Of a stretch of DNA of 64,000 bases, positions 47,003 through 56,744 are shown piece after piece. The notes under the pieces were generated by a model, which was not told the origin of the DNA, did not search any database, and was given only the letters and a program-made list of their open reading frames with translations. Location of the stretch: the IMG/VR virus record IMGVR_UViG_3300027752_001458, positions 32,001 to 96,000 of that record; one strand, written 5' to 3'. Position 1 is the stretch's first letter. Each line of letters opens with the position of its first letter. The position numbers and the translations under genes are program-made. The DNA comes from a virus.

Positions 47003-47301
47003 TGGATATGGCTCAACTGATATCCGACCACGGCTACCCAGTAGTAGCAACAGTGGGATTGGGATATTTTATTTTTTATGTATGGCGCTTTATAGGTTCA
47101 GAAATTAAACCTGCATTAGGCAACATGCATATGGCGTTAATAAGAGTTATTGATCAGACGAGGATGCTTGATCAAGACATGATTCGATTACAACAAAAAG
47201 TAAACGTTGTAATAGAGTACAGACAGAGACAAGAAGTTCTAGAAGATGCAGAAGAAAAGACTGCACTTAGAGAACAAAAACAACAGGAAGTTAAAAAATG
47301 A
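47002..47301 (+). CDS. Small single-pass membrane protein (paralogue of the previous gene)
   Basis: GYPVVATVGLGYFIFYVW followed by a helical tail (RMLDQDMIRL versus RTMSNEMIKI). Confidence 0.7.
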   Translation: MDMAQLISDHGYPVVATVGLGYFIFYVWRFIGSEIKPALGNMHMALIRVIDQTRMLDQDMIRLQQKVNVVIEYRQRQEVLEDAEEKTALREQKQQEVKK

Positions 47302-47795
47302 GTAAGTTTTTATTAATAGCGGTTGGCTATTTTGTAATTGCTCTTGCACCAAGTGTACAAGCAGACCAACTAACACATAAATTTAAGTCTCCGAGTTTCA
47401 GCGGCATTGGAACTGGAGCACATTACCTTACGATTGAGAATCAAGAGAAAAGTCGTAGGGACAAAATTGCAGACAACATTGAATCGGCACTTAAAGCGGC
47501 AGAGCGAGCAGACTCAAACAGCACAATTAACAAATTCATTAGAAATTTAGAGAGTAGAATATACGCTCAAATCTCTAAAGGATTAGTTGACAGCATGTTT
47601 TGTGATCCGGCTACTGTAGTAGAGTGTACAGGTTCAGACTCAGGTGATTTTACAATTGAAGGTAATAATGTAAGTTACCAAATAGTTATAAGTGACGATG
47701 GATTAGAAGTAATGAGACTTACTATTGTTTCTCCAGATGGCACAATAACACAGATAGAAATACCGATTGGCATCGGCAGTATCGGCGGCGGATAG
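47298..47795 (+). CDS. csgF: Curli assembly protein CsgF-like
   Basis: Signal peptide, then QLTHKFKSPSFSG, NLESRIYAQIS and C-terminal TQIEIP; directly upstream of csgG. Confidence 0.8.
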   Translation: MSKFLLIAVGYFVIALAPSVQADQLTHKFKSPSFSGIGTGAHYLTIENQEKSRRDKIADNIESALKAAERADSNSTINKFIRNLESRIYAQISKGLVDSMFCDPATVVECTGSDSGDFTIEGNNVSYQIVISDDGLEVMRLTIVSPDGTITQIEIPIGIGSIGGG

Positions 47796-48796
47796 TGAAA
47801 GATTTTTATAAACTTTTTGCCGTAGTGGCATTATTGCTAACTACTGGGTGTGCCAGTATTGCTATACCAGGTGACAAGCAGTGCCAGGCTGATTTTTTAG
47901 AATGCATTGAAGAACCACAACAAGTAGAACTCCCAACTTATAGAAAGTTACGTTACCTACCTCCTGCGGAAACAATGCCAGTAGTAGCAGTTTACCAATT
48001 CGCAGACTTAACAGGACAACGTTTAAGTTCGGACGGAGCGGCAAGTTTTAGCACAGCCGTAACACAAGGTGCAAAGGATTTACTAATTGACGCTCTTAAG
48101 GCGGCAGGCGCTGGAAAAGACCCTAAGGGTACTTGGTTCCGTGTCGTTGAAAGAGGATTAGGATTAGATAATTTAGTGCGGGAAAGGCAGATTATTCGAA
48201 GTACAAGAGAATCATATGCCAAAGATAGCGACCCCGCACAGCAAGTACAGCCATTATTATTTGCTGGGATGATATTAGAAGGAGGAGTTGTAGGTTATGA
48301 CTCGAATATCGAAACAGGTGGCTCAGGTGCAAGATATCTTGGTATAGGGACAACAAACCAATACCGAAGAGATAGTGTAGTGGTATCATTGAGAGCAGTA
48401 AGTACACTTACAGGCGAAGTGATATTGAACGTACAGACATACAAGACCATTCTAAGTGTAGGGCAAGCCGGCGATGTGTTCAAGTTCCTTGACATGGACA
48501 CTAAATTGCTTGAAATAGAAAGTGGTTTGACAGAAAATGAGAGTGTAACATGGGGTGTTCGTTCAGCGATTGAAGCCTCTGTTTTAGCTCTTGTTGAACA
48601 AGGTGACGAGAGAGGATTTTGGAAAATAGTTTACCCAGAAAATTGGGACCAACTAGTGGCTGAGCAAGAACAGGCATATTGGACGAGGGAGTCTATTAAG
48701 TTACTTAAAGACCCTATTAGTAACGAAACGAAATCTAAACTCAACAAGAACGATGATTCTATTGTAAAGAAAATTTTTTACAAAAAGGAATCTTAA
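47795..48796 (+). CDS. csgG: Curli secretion channel lipoprotein CsgG
   Basis: Lipobox TTG-C; VAVYQFADLTGQR, FSTAVTQG, WFRVVER, LDNLVRERQIIR, EGGVVGYDSNIETGGSGARYLGIG and LRAVSTLTGEV motifs. Confidence 0.93.
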   Translation: MKDFYKLFAVVALLLTTGCASIAIPGDKQCQADFLECIEEPQQVELPTYRKLRYLPPAETMPVVAVYQFADLTGQRLSSDGAASFSTAVTQGAKDLLIDALKAAGAGKDPKGTWFRVVERGLGLDNLVRERQIIRSTRESYAKDSDPAQQVQPLLFAGMILEGGVVGYDSNIETGGSGARYLGIGTTNQYRRDSVVVSLRAVSTLTGEVILNVQTYKTILSVGQAGDVFKFLDMDTKLLEIESGLTENESVTWGVRSAIEASVLALVEQGDERGFWKIVYPENWDQLVAEQEQAYWTRESIKLLKDPISNETKSKLNKNDDSIVKKIFYKKES

Positions 48797-48818: not shown

Positions 48819-49619
48819 ATGAAGACAAATAAATTTTTTAAGAATACATTATTAACCGTCTTCGCTATAACAGGGATATTATCAATTGACCTTGCGTCAG
48901 CGGATAATGAAGTTTTAATAGATCAAGTTGGTGACAACTTAACCTTAACAGTTTTACAAGCAGGCTACGGTAACAGTTTATCTGGAGATACAAGTCAGGG
49001 TACTGATTTAACTCTCACAGGCGGTAGTTTAATTGTAGATCTAATCCAAGACGGTAATTTAAACGAGATCTTCGGATCTTGGGTACTCGATGGATCAGGG
49101 TCAAGTGTATTAGATTTTTACTTTCAGGGTAACAGCAATATCTGGGATATGAATATTGGTGCTACAGGCAGTAGTGATTATACTGATATTTTATCAAACA
49201 TTACTGGCGACAGTAACCTTTTTGATATTGATATTGGTGGTAACAACACAGCTGAAAGTTCAAATATGGATCTAGTAGTACTCGGATCAAGAAACGATTT
49301 CTCAACTAGTTTTACTAATAGTAAAGTTTGGGCCGCAGGCTCTGGCAACAATTCTACTGGTACACAGACTATGTCAGGAATTTTAATTGATTCAAGTTAC
49401 AACACTTGGAACTTTGATATCACAGGATCAGACAATGCGTTTGCCACAAAGCAACAAGGCAATGACGCACATCTATTAACTGTGGAATTAGACGGTAGCG
49501 ATGGTGATTTCCAATTTATACAAGATATGACAACCACATGCTCACCTGCTTGTAACGGTGTCATTAATTTAAATATAAATAGTGAAAATGCGTCAGTTAG
49601 TGTTAAGCAGACAGACTAG
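48819..49619 (+). CDS. Curlin-like secreted repeat protein 1
   Basis: Signal peptide, then N/G/D/S-rich repeats of type IxQxGxxN (IDQVGDN, IQDGNLN, FQGNSN, KQQGND). Confidence 0.7.
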   Translation: MKTNKFFKNTLLTVFAITGILSIDLASADNEVLIDQVGDNLTLTVLQAGYGNSLSGDTSQGTDLTLTGGSLIVDLIQDGNLNEIFGSWVLDGSGSSVLDFYFQGNSNIWDMNIGATGSSDYTDILSNITGDSNLFDIDIGGNNTAESSNMDLVVLGSRNDFSTSFTNSKVWAAGSGNNSTGTQTMSGILIDSSYNTWNFDITGSDNAFATKQQGNDAHLLTVELDGSDGDFQFIQDMTTTCSPACNGVINLNINSENASVSVKQTD

Positions 49620-50763
49620 TACATTAGCATTTATGCTTTTGTTTGCGTTTAATGTGCAAGCCTCCGTCGGCTCAATCGGCGGAGTGCTTGAACAATCTGG
49701 AAGTGTAGCACAAATACAACGAAATAAAGAAAACATACGAGCAGTTTTAAACGAAGAGATTGCTAGTATGGATGAAGTAGAAACAAAGAACGGACGATTG
49801 AAAATTAAATTTGTCGATGATACACTAGTGAGTTTAACAGAACACACTTACATGGTCATCGACGAATATGTGTACGACCCGAACCCAAGTAAAAGCAAAA
49901 TGGCATTAAATTTTGTGTCAGGTACAGCAAGATTTGCCACAGGCGGCTTAGGTTTAGTACCCAGAGAGAACATTACAATACAAACTCCTACAGCAAGTAT
50001 AGGCATAAGGGGAACAGATTTTACTACCACAGTCGATGAACTGGGTAGAAGCCTAGTAATACTATTACCAGACGATAATTGTACTGATAAGGTATCACTA
50101 GAAGAAGGTTGTGCACCTAGTGGGAGTATAACAGTCACTAATGCAGGCGGAACTCAAGTGCTCACAGAAGCATACCAGGCAGTAATGGTAAGCACTTTTG
50201 AGACTATACCGACCACTCCGGTTACACTTGTTAATTTAGATTTAAATATGATTGACAATATGTTCATTGTAAGCGAACCTGTAGAAATTAAAGAGGCAGT
50301 TGAGGAACAACAAAGCGAGTTAAAAGGTAGCGCCGGACTTCTAACTTTTAACGGGCTAGACCAGGACTTGCTAGATATAGAAGGACTGGAATCTAATACG
50401 GCAGATAATTATGAATTTACAGAATTAGATATAGATTTTTTAGATGTTGAATTCTTAAATGATTTATTAGACATCCTAGAGGATAATATAGATTCGCTAG
50501 GCGAAGAACTTAACAATCAAGGTGACGGCACCGACAAACTAATAGGCACACGCTTTGGTAACGATCCAGGTACGCAGTTTAATACGTTTGCAGATTACGA
50601 TGGTAAAGTATTCTTTTTAAGACAAGTATCAAACAAAATTGGAATTAAATTAGAAAAAGGTAGTCAAGCAAGAATTGAATTGTTTGACTCAGATGTAGGA
50701 GAAAACTTAATATGCCTAAACAGTTGTGACGGCATATACATTAGTATTACACAAAATGATTAA
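49582..50763 (+). CDS. Secreted FecR-domain protein
   Basis: Signal peptide; ETKNGRLKIKFVDDTLVSLTEHT...IQTPTASIGIRGTDF (FecR domain); acidic linker. Confidence 0.8.
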   Translation: MKMRQLVLSRQTSTLAFMLLFAFNVQASVGSIGGVLEQSGSVAQIQRNKENIRAVLNEEIASMDEVETKNGRLKIKFVDDTLVSLTEHTYMVIDEYVYDPNPSKSKMALNFVSGTARFATGGLGLVPRENITIQTPTASIGIRGTDFTTTVDELGRSLVILLPDDNCTDKVSLEEGCAPSGSITVTNAGGTQVLTEAYQAVMVSTFETIPTTPVTLVNLDLNMIDNMFIVSEPVEIKEAVEEQQSELKGSAGLLTFNGLDQDLLDIEGLESNTADNYEFTELDIDFLDVEFLNDLLDILEDNIDSLGEELNNQGDGTDKLIGTRFGNDPGTQFNTFADYDGKVFFLRQVSNKIGIKLEKGSQARIELFDSDVGENLICLNSCDGIYISITQND

Positions 50764-51628
50764 AATATTACAGACAATTATATTAGTAGCAGGACTTGTA
50801 TTTGCAGAACAAGTAGCAAGTGCTGACAACGAAGTGCTTATAGACCAGACTGGCGACAACGTTGTTATTGGTATCTTACAGGAAGGATACAATAACAGTA
50901 TTGATGTAGATTTAGGATTAGCTACTTTTGATACTTCCAACACATTTGAAGTAAAACAGGAAGGCCATAATAACGAAGTTTTCCTTAGTGTAGGTGGAAC
51001 TGACAATACGTTGGTGCTGATACAAGAAGGCAACAACAATGATATCAGTTGGACAGATTCTTGGGGCAGTGGTAAAGCATGGGGCGGAGACTTAGACGGC
51101 AATTATAATAACATACACATTCAGCAAAAATGTAGTTTTACAACATGTAATCCAAACGAGGCTCAATTTCATATATGGGGCAACAGTAACACCGTTCTAT
51201 TTGGGCAAGGCTATTATCTAACAGGCCCTAGCGATACAACATTTGATTATGATAACTGGGAACCAGGTGGCAACTTTCTCCGGTTAGACATTCACGGCAG
51301 TAGTAATAGTTTTAAAGGTGGTCAAAAAATGGATAGCACTAGTACTAATCATAATATGACTGTAGACATACATGGTAACAGCAACAATGTATTTGCACAG
51401 CAATGGGCCAATGGTAACAAGACACTTACTTTAAACGTTGACAGCAACAGCAATTCTGTTGCCATTGAACAAAACAATAGCGGTAATCACACCGCAACAG
51501 TAACACTTGATGGTTCGTACCCTACAAGTTTGAACTTGCTACAAACAGGATCAGGTAATCAGTCATACACACTATTCCAAAACTGCCAAACAGTTGGCGG
51601 ATGTAGTGTGTCTATAACACAGGACTAA
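50756..51628 (+). CDS. Curlin-like secreted repeat protein 2
   Basis: ATG at 50756; signal peptide; QEGYNN, QEGHNN, QEGNNN, HGNSNN and QTGSGN repeats. Confidence 0.72.
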   Translation: MIKILQTIILVAGLVFAEQVASADNEVLIDQTGDNVVIGILQEGYNNSIDVDLGLATFDTSNTFEVKQEGHNNEVFLSVGGTDNTLVLIQEGNNNDISWTDSWGSGKAWGGDLDGNYNNIHIQQKCSFTTCNPNEAQFHIWGNSNTVLFGQGYYLTGPSDTTFDYDNWEPGGNFLRLDIHGSSNSFKGGQKMDSTSTNHNMTVDIHGNSNNVFAQQWANGNKTLTLNVDSNSNSVAIEQNNSGNHTATVTLDGSYPTSLNLLQTGSGNQSYTLFQNCQTVGGCSVSITQD

Positions 51629-51728
51629 AACGCAAGTGAATCACGTATTTCATTGATCTGCGCCAACAAATTTGCATAAATAAACTTTGTAAAAGGGTTA
51701 ACCTTTTCGACAACCTAAGGAGAACGCT

Positions 51729-52016
51729 ATGAATAGATTACTATCTATTACAGCAGTCCTCGGTTTTGTTGTTTTTCTTCCGTCATGTGCGTCAGTTGGC
51801 GCAGTAATTGAAGGTGGGAAAGAGTTTACTACAGGCGTAGTAGATGGATCCGTTAATGCAGTTTCTACAATAGCAGGAGCAGTATTAACAGATGTATCTA
51901 GTATCACAAGCACAGCGGCACAAGCCGCTACAGGTGTAATTGACACCGTTGCGACTGAAGTAGATAAACAAACCGATGCATTGCAAGAACCAAAAGCAAA
52001 GCCAGAGGGAAAGTAG
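51729..52016 (+). CDS. Small lipoprotein; candidate -1 frameshift extension to 52126
   Basis: AGGAG RBS, lipobox LPS-C and an amphipathic A/V/T-rich helix; ends G GGA AAG TAG. Confidence 0.75.
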   Translation: MNRLLSITAVLGFVVFLPSCASVGAVIEGGKEFTTGVVDGSVNAVSTIAGAVLTDVSSITSTAAQAATGVIDTVATEVDKQTDALQEPKAKPEGK

Positions 52017-52127
52017 TAACTTCATCAGCCAGGAAGGTAGATGAAGAAATTGCTGAACAAGACATTAAAGTTATAGTACGCAGTATTATGATGTATTGTT
52101 CTAAAAATCCCAAGGAATGCGAATAAC

Positions 52128-52155
52128 AAAAGCACACTACGGTGTGCTTTTTTTT
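52128..52155 (+). terminator. Rho-independent terminator
   Basis: AAAAGCACAC-TACG-GTGTGC followed by T8. Confidence 0.88.
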
Positions 52156-52168
52156 GATAAATATATTA

Positions 52169-54226
52169 ATGAAATGGTTACTAAGCGGCTGGACCGTAGC
52201 AATATCTATATTACTATTAACGACTTTACGAGTTGCCGACCCTACACCATTACAGAGTTTGCGTAGTCAAACATTCGATGCATTACAGCAATTAGATGTT
52301 AAAAAAGAAAGCAACGAAGTTGTTATAATTAACATTGGCGAAAAAAGTTTACAACAATGGGGGCAATGGGCATGGCCAAGACAGAACATAGCACAGTTGA
52401 TATCAGATTTGCGGAGCAAGAACGCTGGAATAATTGGTTTAACGATTATGTTTCCGGAAACAGACCGATTTGGCGGGGACGCAGTTTTGTCAAGTTGGAT
52501 GTCGGAGAACGGGGTAGTTTTATCCCAGACCCCATCTGGCAGAGGAATAAAGAGTACAGGTCCTCATATTGGTACAGCAACGATAGGCCCAGTATCCGCT
52601 ACGGACTACTTGCTGACATGGCCGAATCTCGTAACGAATATTGATATATTAGAGAAGTCAGCCGCAGGCATTGGCGTAGTAGCAAGCGAGCCACAAGCAG
52701 ACAATCAGACGAGAACATATCCACTAGCAGTCGCTGTTGAAGGAAACATATATCCTAGTTTTGCTATTGAAATGCTTAGGGTGTATACAGGCAAACCTAG
52801 TTATATTCTAAAGACATCCGAGATCGGCATTAAAGAATTTGCAGTACCTCCGTTTGATCCTATTGTGACATCCGGAAGAGGTTCTGCATACATAAGATTT
52901 AATAACATATTTGAAGAACACGAGTATGTTCAAGCGAGTGAACTGCCTGACTTAGGCGGAAAGTTCGTAATAGTGGGAGTAAGTGCTGAGGGTGTTGCTA
53001 ATCCGGTTCCCACTCCGGTAGGCAACATATATCCACAGTACATACAAGCTCATATGCTACAGAACTTTATTGATGGTAGTAACATTACCAGGAGTGAACT
53101 AAGTGCTGTGTACGAGCTTCTGTGTGCGTTGTTGAGCATGATCCTAGTGGCTCTTGCGATATATAAGTTACCCATATGGGCAGGACTGTTTACTACAGTA
53201 AGTATTGTAGGAGCAATTGCCTATTCTACTGTACACTTTTATACTGCAAACTTATATTTGTTCGATGCAACCTTCCCTGCAATAGCAACATTCTTAATTT
53301 TTACACAGGCAAGTTTTAATAACTTCTGGGTACAGTTTAAATTGAGACAAGAAATACAGAAACAATTTGCTGGATATGCCTCACCTACCGTTGTTAGAAT
53401 GTTACAAGATAACCCGGACTTAATTAAACAAGGCATGAAGAAAGAAGTTAGTATATGCTTTTCAGACTTACGTGGCTTTACTCCACTAGGTGAGAGCTTT
53501 GGCGATGATGTACAGGGCTTAACAAAAATGATGAACGAGTATATGGATGCTATTACACAACCTATACTTGATGCAGACGGCATGGTGATTAAATATATCG
53601 GCGATGCAAGTATGCACATACACAATGCTCCTATGGACGACCCAGATCATCCTAAGAGTGCGGTGCAAACAGGATTACAAATGCTTAGGGCAGTGGAGAA
53701 GTTTAATGATAAAATTGTTAAAGAGGGCAGACCACCCATTGGTATGGGTGCTGGTATTAATACTGGGCTCGGTTATATTGGGGAAATGGGCTCCACTGCA
53801 AGACACTCATATGACATACTCGGAGACGCAGTTAGTACTGCCGCGAGAATAGAAAGCAAGTGTAAAGAGTATGGGTGCTTATTACTTGTAGGTGGAGACA
53901 CATACAAGCATACTAAGAGTGATTTCTTTTATCTAAAAGTAGATGACTTGCAAGTAAAAGGTAAAAGTGTTGGAATAGAAATATACACTGTACTGGATAT
54001 TAAGCGAACTAAGTATGTTAAAGGTAAGCAACTACACGCACAGATGCATAAACATTATCGTAACCAAGACTTTAATAAAGCAATTAAATTGTGTAATCAA
54101 CTGTCTAAAACCTTTGATGGTAAGATGAAAGATTATTATGCTATGTGGATTGAACGTTGTGAATTTCAACTAACACAAGACTTACCTAAAGATTGGAACG
54201 GGATATTTATTGCCACAGGCAAGTAG
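52169..54226 (+). CDS. CHASE2-domain class III adenylate/guanylate cyclase
   Basis: N-terminal TM, WGQWAWPR...FPETDR (CHASE2), three TMs, then FSDLRGFT, KYIGDA, GAGINTG, YDILGDAVSTAARIE and VKGK; ATG at 52169 after GATAAATA. Confidence 0.92.
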   Translation: MKWLLSGWTVAISILLLTTLRVADPTPLQSLRSQTFDALQQLDVKKESNEVVIINIGEKSLQQWGQWAWPRQNIAQLISDLRSKNAGIIGLTIMFPETDRFGGDAVLSSWMSENGVVLSQTPSGRGIKSTGPHIGTATIGPVSATDYLLTWPNLVTNIDILEKSAAGIGVVASEPQADNQTRTYPLAVAVEGNIYPSFAIEMLRVYTGKPSYILKTSEIGIKEFAVPPFDPIVTSGRGSAYIRFNNIFEEHEYVQASELPDLGGKFVIVGVSAEGVANPVPTPVGNIYPQYIQAHMLQNFIDGSNITRSELSAVYELLCALLSMILVALAIYKLPIWAGLFTTVSIVGAIAYSTVHFYTANLYLFDATFPAIATFLIFTQASFNNFWVQFKLRQEIQKQFAGYASPTVVRMLQDNPDLIKQGMKKEVSICFSDLRGFTPLGESFGDDVQGLTKMMNEYMDAITQPILDADGMVIKYIGDASMHIHNAPMDDPDHPKSAVQTGLQMLRAVEKFNDKIVKEGRPPIGMGAGINTGLGYIGEMGSTARHSYDILGDAVSTAARIESKCKEYGCLLLVGGDTYKHTKSDFFYLKVDDLQVKGKSVGIEIYTVLDIKRTKYVKGKQLHAQMHKHYRNQDFNKAIKLCNQLSKTFDGKMKDYYAMWIERCEFQLTQDLPKDWNGIFIATGK

Positions 54227-55343: not shown

Positions 55344-56744
55344 TTATACGTTCAGGCGCCAGAACCCTGGGTTGTACTTCCCTTCGTATGTGCTTGTCCA
55401 TTGAACGTTTTCCCATTTGTATTGTTTGTTTGTGTATAAGTTTTTAACATAATGAACACTTTCTTGGTTTGCTGATGTAGAAGCATCAAATGATATAATC
55501 CATGCAGTGCCGTTGTATTCAATAATGTCATTAGCGTCTGCGGATATACCCCAACTAGCGCCATGTAACTCTGTAGTAAGTAAGTAACGTTGTCCTGTTG
55601 TTGCTACGGCTAAAGTGCCATCACCTGGATAGTTTGCTGTAGCATCGACTATTCTTGTTACGTTTGTTTGTGTTGTTGAAGGCAAAGTGTCAGTATCCAA
55701 TGTAAATATAAGTTTAGATGCATCCGCTGGATTTCTTGCCACTAAGCCAGTTATCAATGTAGACGAGTCTACATCGTTCGATATATTAAGTTGTAATGTA
55801 CTTGCTGTAGTTAACGGAATGTCTGAAATACTTATGTTAGCATTCGCTGTACCGGTTCCCTGTGGGGAGAGTACTTCTAGTAAATCATTCCAGTTAGCTT
55901 CTGTGGCACCGTTTTTATATAACTTGGCCACTGTACCAGTAAGTTCAACTTCATAATTGTTAGGTGATATTGTGTGCAACTCAAAGTCTTGATCCAAGTC
56001 TCTAAAGAAGTCGTACATATCTTCGTCATAACCTAAATCTCCGACACTGCCTGTGTCGTAAATATTTGTTATAATAGTATTAATAATTTTTTGTCTTTTA
56101 ACTTTAGCGGGAGGACTTACCCATATAGGTAACACAAATGTTAGTGTAGCAACATCAATTGTTTCATCAACTCCTGCAGGAACACTTCTGTTGCTCCATT
56201 GTATATCAGTTAATTCGACTTCGTATAAACTAGTCCAGTCTAATGGATTGTTTCCTTGCTGTAGTTGTATACTAGGATTAAATAGGATTAAAATTTGTTC
56301 TAGTAATTGTAATTTTTGATCTGTGTTCCCACTCCAAATATCAATGTTCATTGTTAAGTTGTAAGGAACAGGCATATATCTATCTGTTGTATATAAATTT
56401 CCAGGAAACTCTGCCGAACTGTAAGTAGCATTGCCAGAGTCATATTGTCTTTCAGCAACTTGTACTTTACTAACAAGCATTGGATCTTGTGCTCTGTCTC
56501 TAGCAATAAGCAAACTTGAAATGTTACATGATATAAACGGTGTACTATTAACCATGTTCTCCGAACCTTTGGTCAATATATGTGCAACCATACGTTGCAT
56601 GTCTGCATATCTTACTGGAACTTTTTGGTAGTTCGTAACACCATCACGTTTACCTTCTGCAACTGTAAAGCCACTGAATATTCTCATGAACTGAAGCAAG
56701 TATCTTCTTAACTGTGCGTCATAAAAGTAATCCATATTTGCCAT
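55344..56744 (-). CDS. Tail terminator / sheath stabiliser, gp15-like, with C-terminal extension
   Basis: YFYDAQLRRYLLQF, KVPVRY, MPVPYNL and QLLEQILILFNP motifs. Confidence 0.8.
   Translation of the reverse strand: MANMDYFYDAQLRRYLLQFMRIFSGFTVAEGKRDGVTNYQKVPVRYADMQRMVAHILTKGSENMVNSTPFISCNISSLLIARDRAQDPMLVSKVQVAERQYDSGNATYSSAEFPGNLYTTDRYMPVPYNLTMNIDIWSGNTDQKLQLLEQILILFNPSIQLQQGNNPLDWTSLYEVELTDIQWSNRSVPAGVDETIDVATLTFVLPIWVSPPAKVKRQKIINTIITNIYDTGSVGDLGYDEDMYDFFRDLDQDFELHTISPNNYEVELTGTVAKLYKNGATEANWNDLLEVLSPQGTGTANANISISDIPLTTASTLQLNISNDVDSSTLITGLVARNPADASKLIFTLDTDTLPSTTQTNVTRIVDATANYPGDGTLAVATTGQRYLLTTELHGASWGISADANDIIEYNGTAWIISFDASTSANQESVHYVKNLYTNKQYKWENVQWTSTYEGKYNPGFWRLNV

Follow-up and report, generated by a model that had tools for sequence, protein, structure and literature searches.

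A probable programmed -1 ribosomal frameshift adds a two-cysteine tail to a lipoprotein family of marine T4-like phages

Genomic setting of the lipoprotein gene

The window analysed here, a stretch of 64,000 nucleotides, forms part of a 109,675-base IMG/VR virus record and contains a small gene, predicted to encode a lipoprotein, that sits between a curlin-like gene and the gene for a CHASE2 cyclase. The features recognised at this gene are as follows.

51675..51682, plus strand: T4-late-promoter-like box CATAAATA, an inferred promoter upstream of the lipoprotein gene
51717..51722, plus strand: Shine-Dalgarno sequence AAGGAG, read from the sequence, 6 nt 5′ of the ATG
51729..52016, plus strand: lipoprotein gene in the 0 frame, 95 codons plus TAG, with no Pfam or PHROG family
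52007..52013, plus strand: slippery heptamer G_GGA_AAG, in the X_XXY_YYZ register of the lipoprotein frame
52014..52019, plus strand: 6-nt spacer made up of the tandem 0-frame stops TAG TAA, read from the sequence
52020..52046, plus strand: predicted stimulatory hairpin with a 7-bp stem (CTTCATC/GATGAAG) and a 3-bp inner stem; fold z = -4.1
52007..52126, plus strand: -1-frame tail open reading frame (ORF), 39 codons from 52007, with stop TAA at 52124-52126
52128..52155, plus strand: intrinsic terminator with a 10-bp stem and a T-run at 52148-52155, the first four T of which are used by the 3′ arm

Pfam identifies among the neighbours CsgF (47298-47795), CsgG (47795-48796), a FecR-domain protein (49582-50763), a curlin-repeat protein (50726-51628) and a CHASE2 nucleotide cyclase (52142-54226), and a tail sheath gene lies at 55344-56744. 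The CsgG of the window shares 45% identity with that of Pelagibacter phage HTVC008M and 42% with that of Methylophilales phage Melnitz, and the phage is a relative of the T4-like pelagimyophages. The source record, at 109.7 kb, is 28% complete according to CheckV. The cultured relatives HTVC008M and Melnitz have genomes of 141-147 kb, and homologues of the lipoprotein occur on contigs of up to 344 kb, so that its carriers may include much larger phages.

A curli-like operon has been described in pelagimyophages and in Melnitz (PMC7029224, PMC9004378), and the window resembles it in having two small membrane proteins, CsgF, CsgG, a curlin-like protein, a FecR-domain protein, a second curlin-like protein and a cyclase; neither the lipoprotein gene nor a frameshift is mentioned in these papers. 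In the HTVC008M operon, unlike in the window, the second curlin-like gene and the cyclase gene are direct neighbours. In the L081-L087 clade the lipoprotein gene is found upstream of csgF, and at many homologous loci, where no curli gene occurs within 3 kb, it lies amid genes for replication or structure. The description of the product as a curli-locus lipoprotein, put forward in the earlier note, is thus apt for the window and some of its close relatives, but it does not carry over to the many homologues located elsewhere or to the HTVC008M curli operon, which does without the gene. An obligatory role as a component of curli, or type VIII, secretion was considered and rejected because co-occurrence with csgG and csgF is inconsistent. 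Having its own promoter-like box and terminator, the lipoprotein gene therefore behaves as a mobile single-gene unit.

The 0-frame product is a protein of 95 amino acids with a hydrophobic N-terminus, a cysteine at position 20 (51786-51788), an amphipathic helical body and a C-terminus reading KPEGK. Cys20 is invariant among the 19 diverse homologues compared, and it is preceded by lipobox-like residues (L-P-S-C in the window; A-A-S-C, V-G-C, T-N-C and T-G-C in homologues), the proline at -2 being atypical. From this N-terminus and the invariant cysteine we infer a bacterial-type lipoprotein that would be lipidated at Cys20. The family comprises 122 protein homologues of 72-113 amino acids. 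Searches of the lipoprotein body against Pfam and PHROGs gave no match, and neither the window DNA nor the lipoprotein matched the GenBank phage collection, in which isolates were matched only by CsgG. No homologue was found when 185,579 cell genomes were scanned with two peptide patterns, a result that suggests a phage-restricted family. Along the mature body (within 51729-52013) hydrophobicity is autocorrelated at lags of 4, 7, 11 and 15, a periodicity of the 11/3 amphipathic type that resembles membrane-surface-binding helices. AlphaFold2 models the body as one long helix at low confidence (pLDDT 54).

A candidate frameshift signal in the window

The lipoprotein ORF ends CCA GAG GGA AAG TAG, with a second in-frame stop, TAA, at 52017-52019. 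The earlier note had read this 3′ end as a -1 frameshift site, and its components hold up on inspection: GGGAAAG is present at 52007-52013 in the X_XXY_YYZ register, and the arms it had proposed for a hairpin (CTTCATC at 52020-52026 and GATGAAG at 52040-52046) do pair in the predicted fold, the stem beginning 6 nt 3′ of the heptamer. The 55 nt behind the heptamer have a predicted folding energy of -14.5 kcal/mol (z = -4.1), and none of 200 shuffled sequences folds as well. G_GGA_AAG is known to be highly shift-prone in Escherichia coli (PMC5009743).

As that note had also stated, the -1 frame stays open for 39 residues to the TAA at 52124-52126, which ends 1 nt before the terminator stem begins at 52128. 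The first new residue of the tail is encoded by GTA at 52013-52015, and the tail consists of a linker, then an amphipathic helix and finally Y-C-x6-C, with the tyrosine at 52094-52096 and the cysteines at 52097-52099 and 52118-52120. The frame offers no plausible start, since it holds no ATG, GTG or TTG upstream of the paired ATG ATG at 52088-52093. Within 52031-52076, the hairpin loop contains a Shine-Dalgarno-like AGGAAGG that is followed by an ATG at 52041 in the frame of the lipoprotein. This ATG was considered as a start and set aside, because it opens a mere 11 codons in the wrong frame for the tail and is probably incidental.

Among the 88 ORFs of at least 80 amino acids in the six frames of the window, the -1 frame remains open for at least 39 codons past the stop in 19, such open frames being common mostly because neighbouring genes occupy that frame. 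An in-frame XXXYYYZ within the last 7-10 nt is found in the lipoprotein ORF only, which makes the combination of heptamer and open -1 frame unique among the 88. Taken alone, the evidence from the window is suggestive; the decisive evidence is comparative.

Contigs from RNA libraries (three metatranscriptome runs in two studies) cover positions 51719-52122, 51695-51915 together with 51922-52119, and 51703-52001. They are identical to the genomic sequence, with no difference and no indel, at the resolution of Logan contigs, which drop rare variants and leave minority extra-base transcripts invisible; RNA libraries can also hold DNA. A DNA contig continues past both ends of this interval. The limits of the RNA contigs agree with the CATAAATA box at 51675 and with the terminator at 52128, which suggests a monocistronic mRNA that spans the tail; exact copies of the TATAAATA consensus show no enrichment in the window. 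In most clades the terminator is placed after the stop of the tail and not after the 0-frame stop, and in 18 of 26 clade representatives it lies 20-57 nt past the tail stop.

Directly behind the T-run of the terminator in the window, and before the CHASE2 cyclase gene, GATAAATA occurs at 52156-52163, and X15 RNA-library contigs resume only at 52309. This element would fit a separate late promoter of the cyclase.

The frameshift region across viral loci

Five scans of viral contigs, run with the window protein and with four distant relatives, yielded about 250 homologous loci. For every locus the stop of the lipoprotein was located and the -1 frame read, and removal of duplicates left 97 distinct 300-nt regions, which fall into three groups.

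74 of 97 regions: an in-register X_XXY_YYZ ending 0 or 3 nt before the stop, and a 33-72-codon tail ending [Y/H/F]-C-x5-6-C
22 of 97 regions: heptamer absent and tail absent
1 of 97 regions (L195): heptamer present, and a tail that ends before the Cys loop

An in-frame XXXYYYZ thus accompanies the tail in 74 of 74 distinct tail-bearing regions and occurs in 0 of 22 tail-less ones. The exceptional locus (L195:1157-1250) retains G_GGA_AAC and the first part of the tail helix (…DQDIKIMIKQ), directly followed by a terminator-like hairpin, and constitutes a natural short-tail variant. When 76 lipoprotein bodies were placed on a maximum-likelihood tree, the sequences without a tail formed a single nested clade, a placement consistent with joint loss of heptamer and tail in one event.

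Four heptamers are used in the family, namely G_GGA_AAG, A_AAA_AAG (either abutting the stop or one codon earlier), G_GGA_AAC and C_CCA_AAA, all of them of established shift-prone kinds (PMC5009743). On the tree, G_GGA_AAG requires at least 5 changes and A_AAA_AAG at least 3-6, and X_XXY_YYZ is kept in the tail-bearing forms throughout. G_GGA_AAC and C_CCA_AAA shift less efficiently in E. coli than do heptamers of the type X_XXA_AAG.

Structure is predicted 3′ of the heptamer in 20 of 20 clade representatives, with the hairpin starting 4-9 nt downstream in most. Their fold z-scores are all negative, 14 of the 20 being -2 or lower, and their stem sequences are unrelated; the hairpins are weak in L009, L168, L223 and L155 (z of about -0.8 to -1.4). 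The evidence for the hairpins, all of them predicted, consists of these per-clade folds and of one alignment, that of an 11-sequence sub-clade in which 92.7% of stem cells are paired, versus at most 57% in slid controls, and 3 pairs have compensatory double changes. RNAalifold found no consensus structure in a mixed-clade alignment, because the hairpins are not positionally homologous. Even homologues with only about 35-45% identity in the body have retained the heptamer, together with a hairpin that begins 4-9 nt further on and a -1 tail frame that stays open, the reverse of the heptamer loss or -1-frame stops that the earlier note had named as contrary evidence.

Slippage during transcription would produce the same protein by another route, the polymerase adding a base in the A/G run so that a subset of mRNAs encodes the fusion in a single frame. 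In many clades the site does contain 6-7 consecutive A (GAAAAAAAG, CAAAAAAGG), where one inserted A would give the same product, and minority variants are invisible in contig-level RNA data. The window and at least five other clades, however, have GGGAAAG or GGGAAAC, whose three G and three A are too short for efficient polymerase slippage, and the RNA contigs are free of indels. The X_XXY_YYZ register, which matters for the re-pairing of tRNAs and is irrelevant to a polymerase, is always kept, and the distance of 4-9 nt at which the hairpin is maintained is the geometry of a ribosomal stimulator. We consider this explanation quite unlikely; in the A-run clades transcriptional slippage could make a small contribution.

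The tail itself bears the marks of a coding sequence. Comparison of close pairs gives a pN/pS of 0.13 for the tail frame and of 1.0 and 2.2 for the other two frames, as computed over 33 distinct sequences for a 22-codon core anchored on the first cysteine. The column entropy of this core peaks at third positions, a substitution pattern that argues against tail conservation as an artefact of RNA structure. All of 22 tails that were aligned share Y, C, P and C without exception, and further clades keep the cysteine pair and vary in the tyrosine and the proline. These patterns point clearly to purifying selection on the tail frame and hence to its translation. No match to the tail was obtained in Pfam, in PHROGs or among PDB sequences. 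AlphaFold2, run on the 22-tail alignment, models a helix over tail residues 6-33 followed by a turn (mean pLDDT 82) that is predicted to bring the two cysteines near each other. The two-Cys loop would probably be closed by a disulfide after export.

Translation of the tail frame would be equally expected if the tail were a separate small protein, made from a non-canonical start of its own or by re-initiation after the lipoprotein stop. An ATG does occur 10-22 codons into the tail in some clades, and in the tail-less clade an independent small membrane-protein ORF with its own ATG occupies the same place. Against this, several clades, those of the window, L081, L129 and L009 among them, have no ATG, GTG or TTG anywhere 5′ of the conserved tail helix; the internal ATGs are not conserved in position and fall within or after conserved residues; and no conserved Shine-Dalgarno sequence is present. 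In 41 of the 74 tail-bearing regions, moreover, a -1-frame stop (TGA) stands immediately 5′ of the heptamer, and the overlap between the frames amounts to exactly the 7 slippery nucleotides; in these regions the heptamer is therefore the sole passage from the lipoprotein frame into the tail frame. A separate protein leaves both this exact overlap and the co-occurrence of heptamer and tail unexplained, and we judge it very unlikely.

The small ORF of the tail-less clade (L228, L232, L240, L242, L249 and L250) begins with its own ATG about 0-10 nt past the lipoprotein stop and encodes a single-pass membrane peptide of about 40 amino acids at the position of the frameshift tail.

No protein that fuses lipoprotein and tail within a single frame turned up among the 122 near-length homologues or when 1.84 billion representatives were searched with HMMER. 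A tail profile whose first row had 52 amino acids also found no match in longer proteins, a result that is weak evidence. The reading in which there is no recoding at all, the tail being a chance frame in the 3′ UTR, the remnant of a decayed gene or a homopolymer error of assembly or sequencing, can appeal to the 19 of 88 window ORFs with a long open -1 frame, but it is effectively refuted on comparative grounds by the recurrence of the arrangement, with different heptamers, in 74 distinct sequences that come from many independent metagenomes, by purifying selection confined to the tail frame, by the agreement of DNA and RNA contigs of many studies on the sequence, and by the failure to find an in-frame version in the protein databases searched.

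Proposed mechanism, related systems and possible role

Programmed -1 ribosomal frameshifting at the heptamer is very likely to be the means by which this gene family yields both a short and a tailed lipoprotein. The extension of the lipoprotein by a Cys-pair tail, which was the central proposal of the earlier note, is borne out by the co-occurrence of heptamer and tail, by the predicted hairpin and by the selection acting on the tail frame. The lipoprotein gene and the 39-codon -1 ORF would make up one late transcription unit that encodes two proteins. Most ribosomes would terminate at the TAG at 52014 and release the short lipoprotein, of 95 amino acids before processing and lipidated at Cys20, while a fraction of them would be held up by the hairpin 6 nt downstream. 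These stalled ribosomes would slip by -1 on G_GGA_AAG, the tRNA-Gly moving from GGA to GGG and the tRNA-Lys from AAG to AAA, and would then read on through GTA GTA ACT, adding 37 residues that comprise a variable linker, the amphipathic helix and the terminal Y-C-x6-C loop. Under such a mechanism the two isoforms would be made at a fixed ratio, as the earlier note had inferred.

The closest parallel is the frameshift of the lambda G/GT tail assembly chaperone, which was reportedly described by Levin, Hendrix and Casjens in 1993 and by Xu, Hendrix and Duda in 2004. Both systems place an identical G_GGA_AAG close to the 3′ end of a small phage gene. In both, a -1 slip, which is proposed in the case of the lipoprotein, appends a second domain to give two products with a common N-terminal part, and the shift is conserved across many phages with a variable heptamer sequence; the lambda case is summarised in PMC5009743. 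The lipoprotein gene differs in encoding a putatively secreted product outside the interval between the tail tube and tape measure genes, in having no sequence match to the gpG/gpT families, and in combining a short extension (33-72 codons) with a conserved downstream hairpin. A tail assembly chaperone was rejected as an identity for the gene by its position, by the lack of chaperone homology in Pfam and PHROGs, and by the putative signal peptide and invariant cysteine.

Three further systems share elements of the signal. As in the largest clades of the family, E. coli dnaX (tau/gamma) couples A_AAA_AAG to a stem-loop a few nucleotides downstream, but the dnaX shift leads to early termination and a shorter product, whereas that of the lipoprotein would bypass a stop and lengthen the protein; dnaX also uses an upstream Shine-Dalgarno-like stimulator, and none was seen in the lipoprotein family. 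The orfA-orfB arrangement of IS3-family elements (IS911, IS150) likewise ends a short upstream ORF in A_AAA_AAG beside a 0-frame stop, with downstream structure and a fusion product, but the product there is a transposase, whereas the lipoprotein has no transposase domains and its second frame provides merely a short tail. The C_CCA_AAx site of clade L223 recalls the g-t sites of haloarchaeal tailed viruses and the C_CCA_AAG of E. coli copA, which belong to other gene families and other hosts; frameshifting in copA truncates the protein rather than extending it.

To our knowledge, conserved programmed frameshifts in phages come almost exclusively from tail chaperones, capsid genes and a few enzymes. 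That the mechanism is a known type of recoding and the gene family a new and abundant one, an uncharacterised and apparently phage-restricted lipoprotein, is well supported. The family is widespread in marine T4-like phages, relatives of the Pelagibacter and OM43 myophages, and its comparative support is unusually clean, with heptamer and tail gained or lost together and with heptamers and hairpins replaced while the geometry is kept. Given this clean co-occurrence, the turnover of the signal and the 7-nt overlap, the family offers a good natural test set for programs that predict frameshifts, the training of which relies mostly on tail chaperones. The results also correct the annotation of the gene, of which gene callers report the short form only, no database protein containing the tail, and they add a testable component beside the unexplained phage curli-like operon.

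As to function, our guess, held with low confidence, is an envelope-anchored phage protein that would need a set stoichiometry of tailed and untailed subunits for its activity and would have the envelope of the infected cell as its target; superinfection exclusion, or an accessory function to the phage CsgG/CsgF pore, would be possible examples. By analogy with lambda G:GT, we tentatively propose a phage-only, mobile two-isoform module whose slip rate might set the composition of a mixed envelope complex of many untailed and few tailed subunits, the disulfide-closed helix-loop tail docking on a partner, for instance a receptor in the outer membrane of the host or the CsgG/CsgF pore of the phage. 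Were this doubtful reading true, no earlier envelope or superinfection factor under the control of recoding would have been described in phages of abundant marine bacteria.

A spanin role was rejected because some carrier phages have separate Rz/Rz1-like pairs nearby. Overlapping gene pairs resembling Rz/Rz1-type spanins, each consisting of a membrane-anchored coiled-coil protein and an embedded lipoprotein, are found at L191:4963-5713 and L223:1820-2684.
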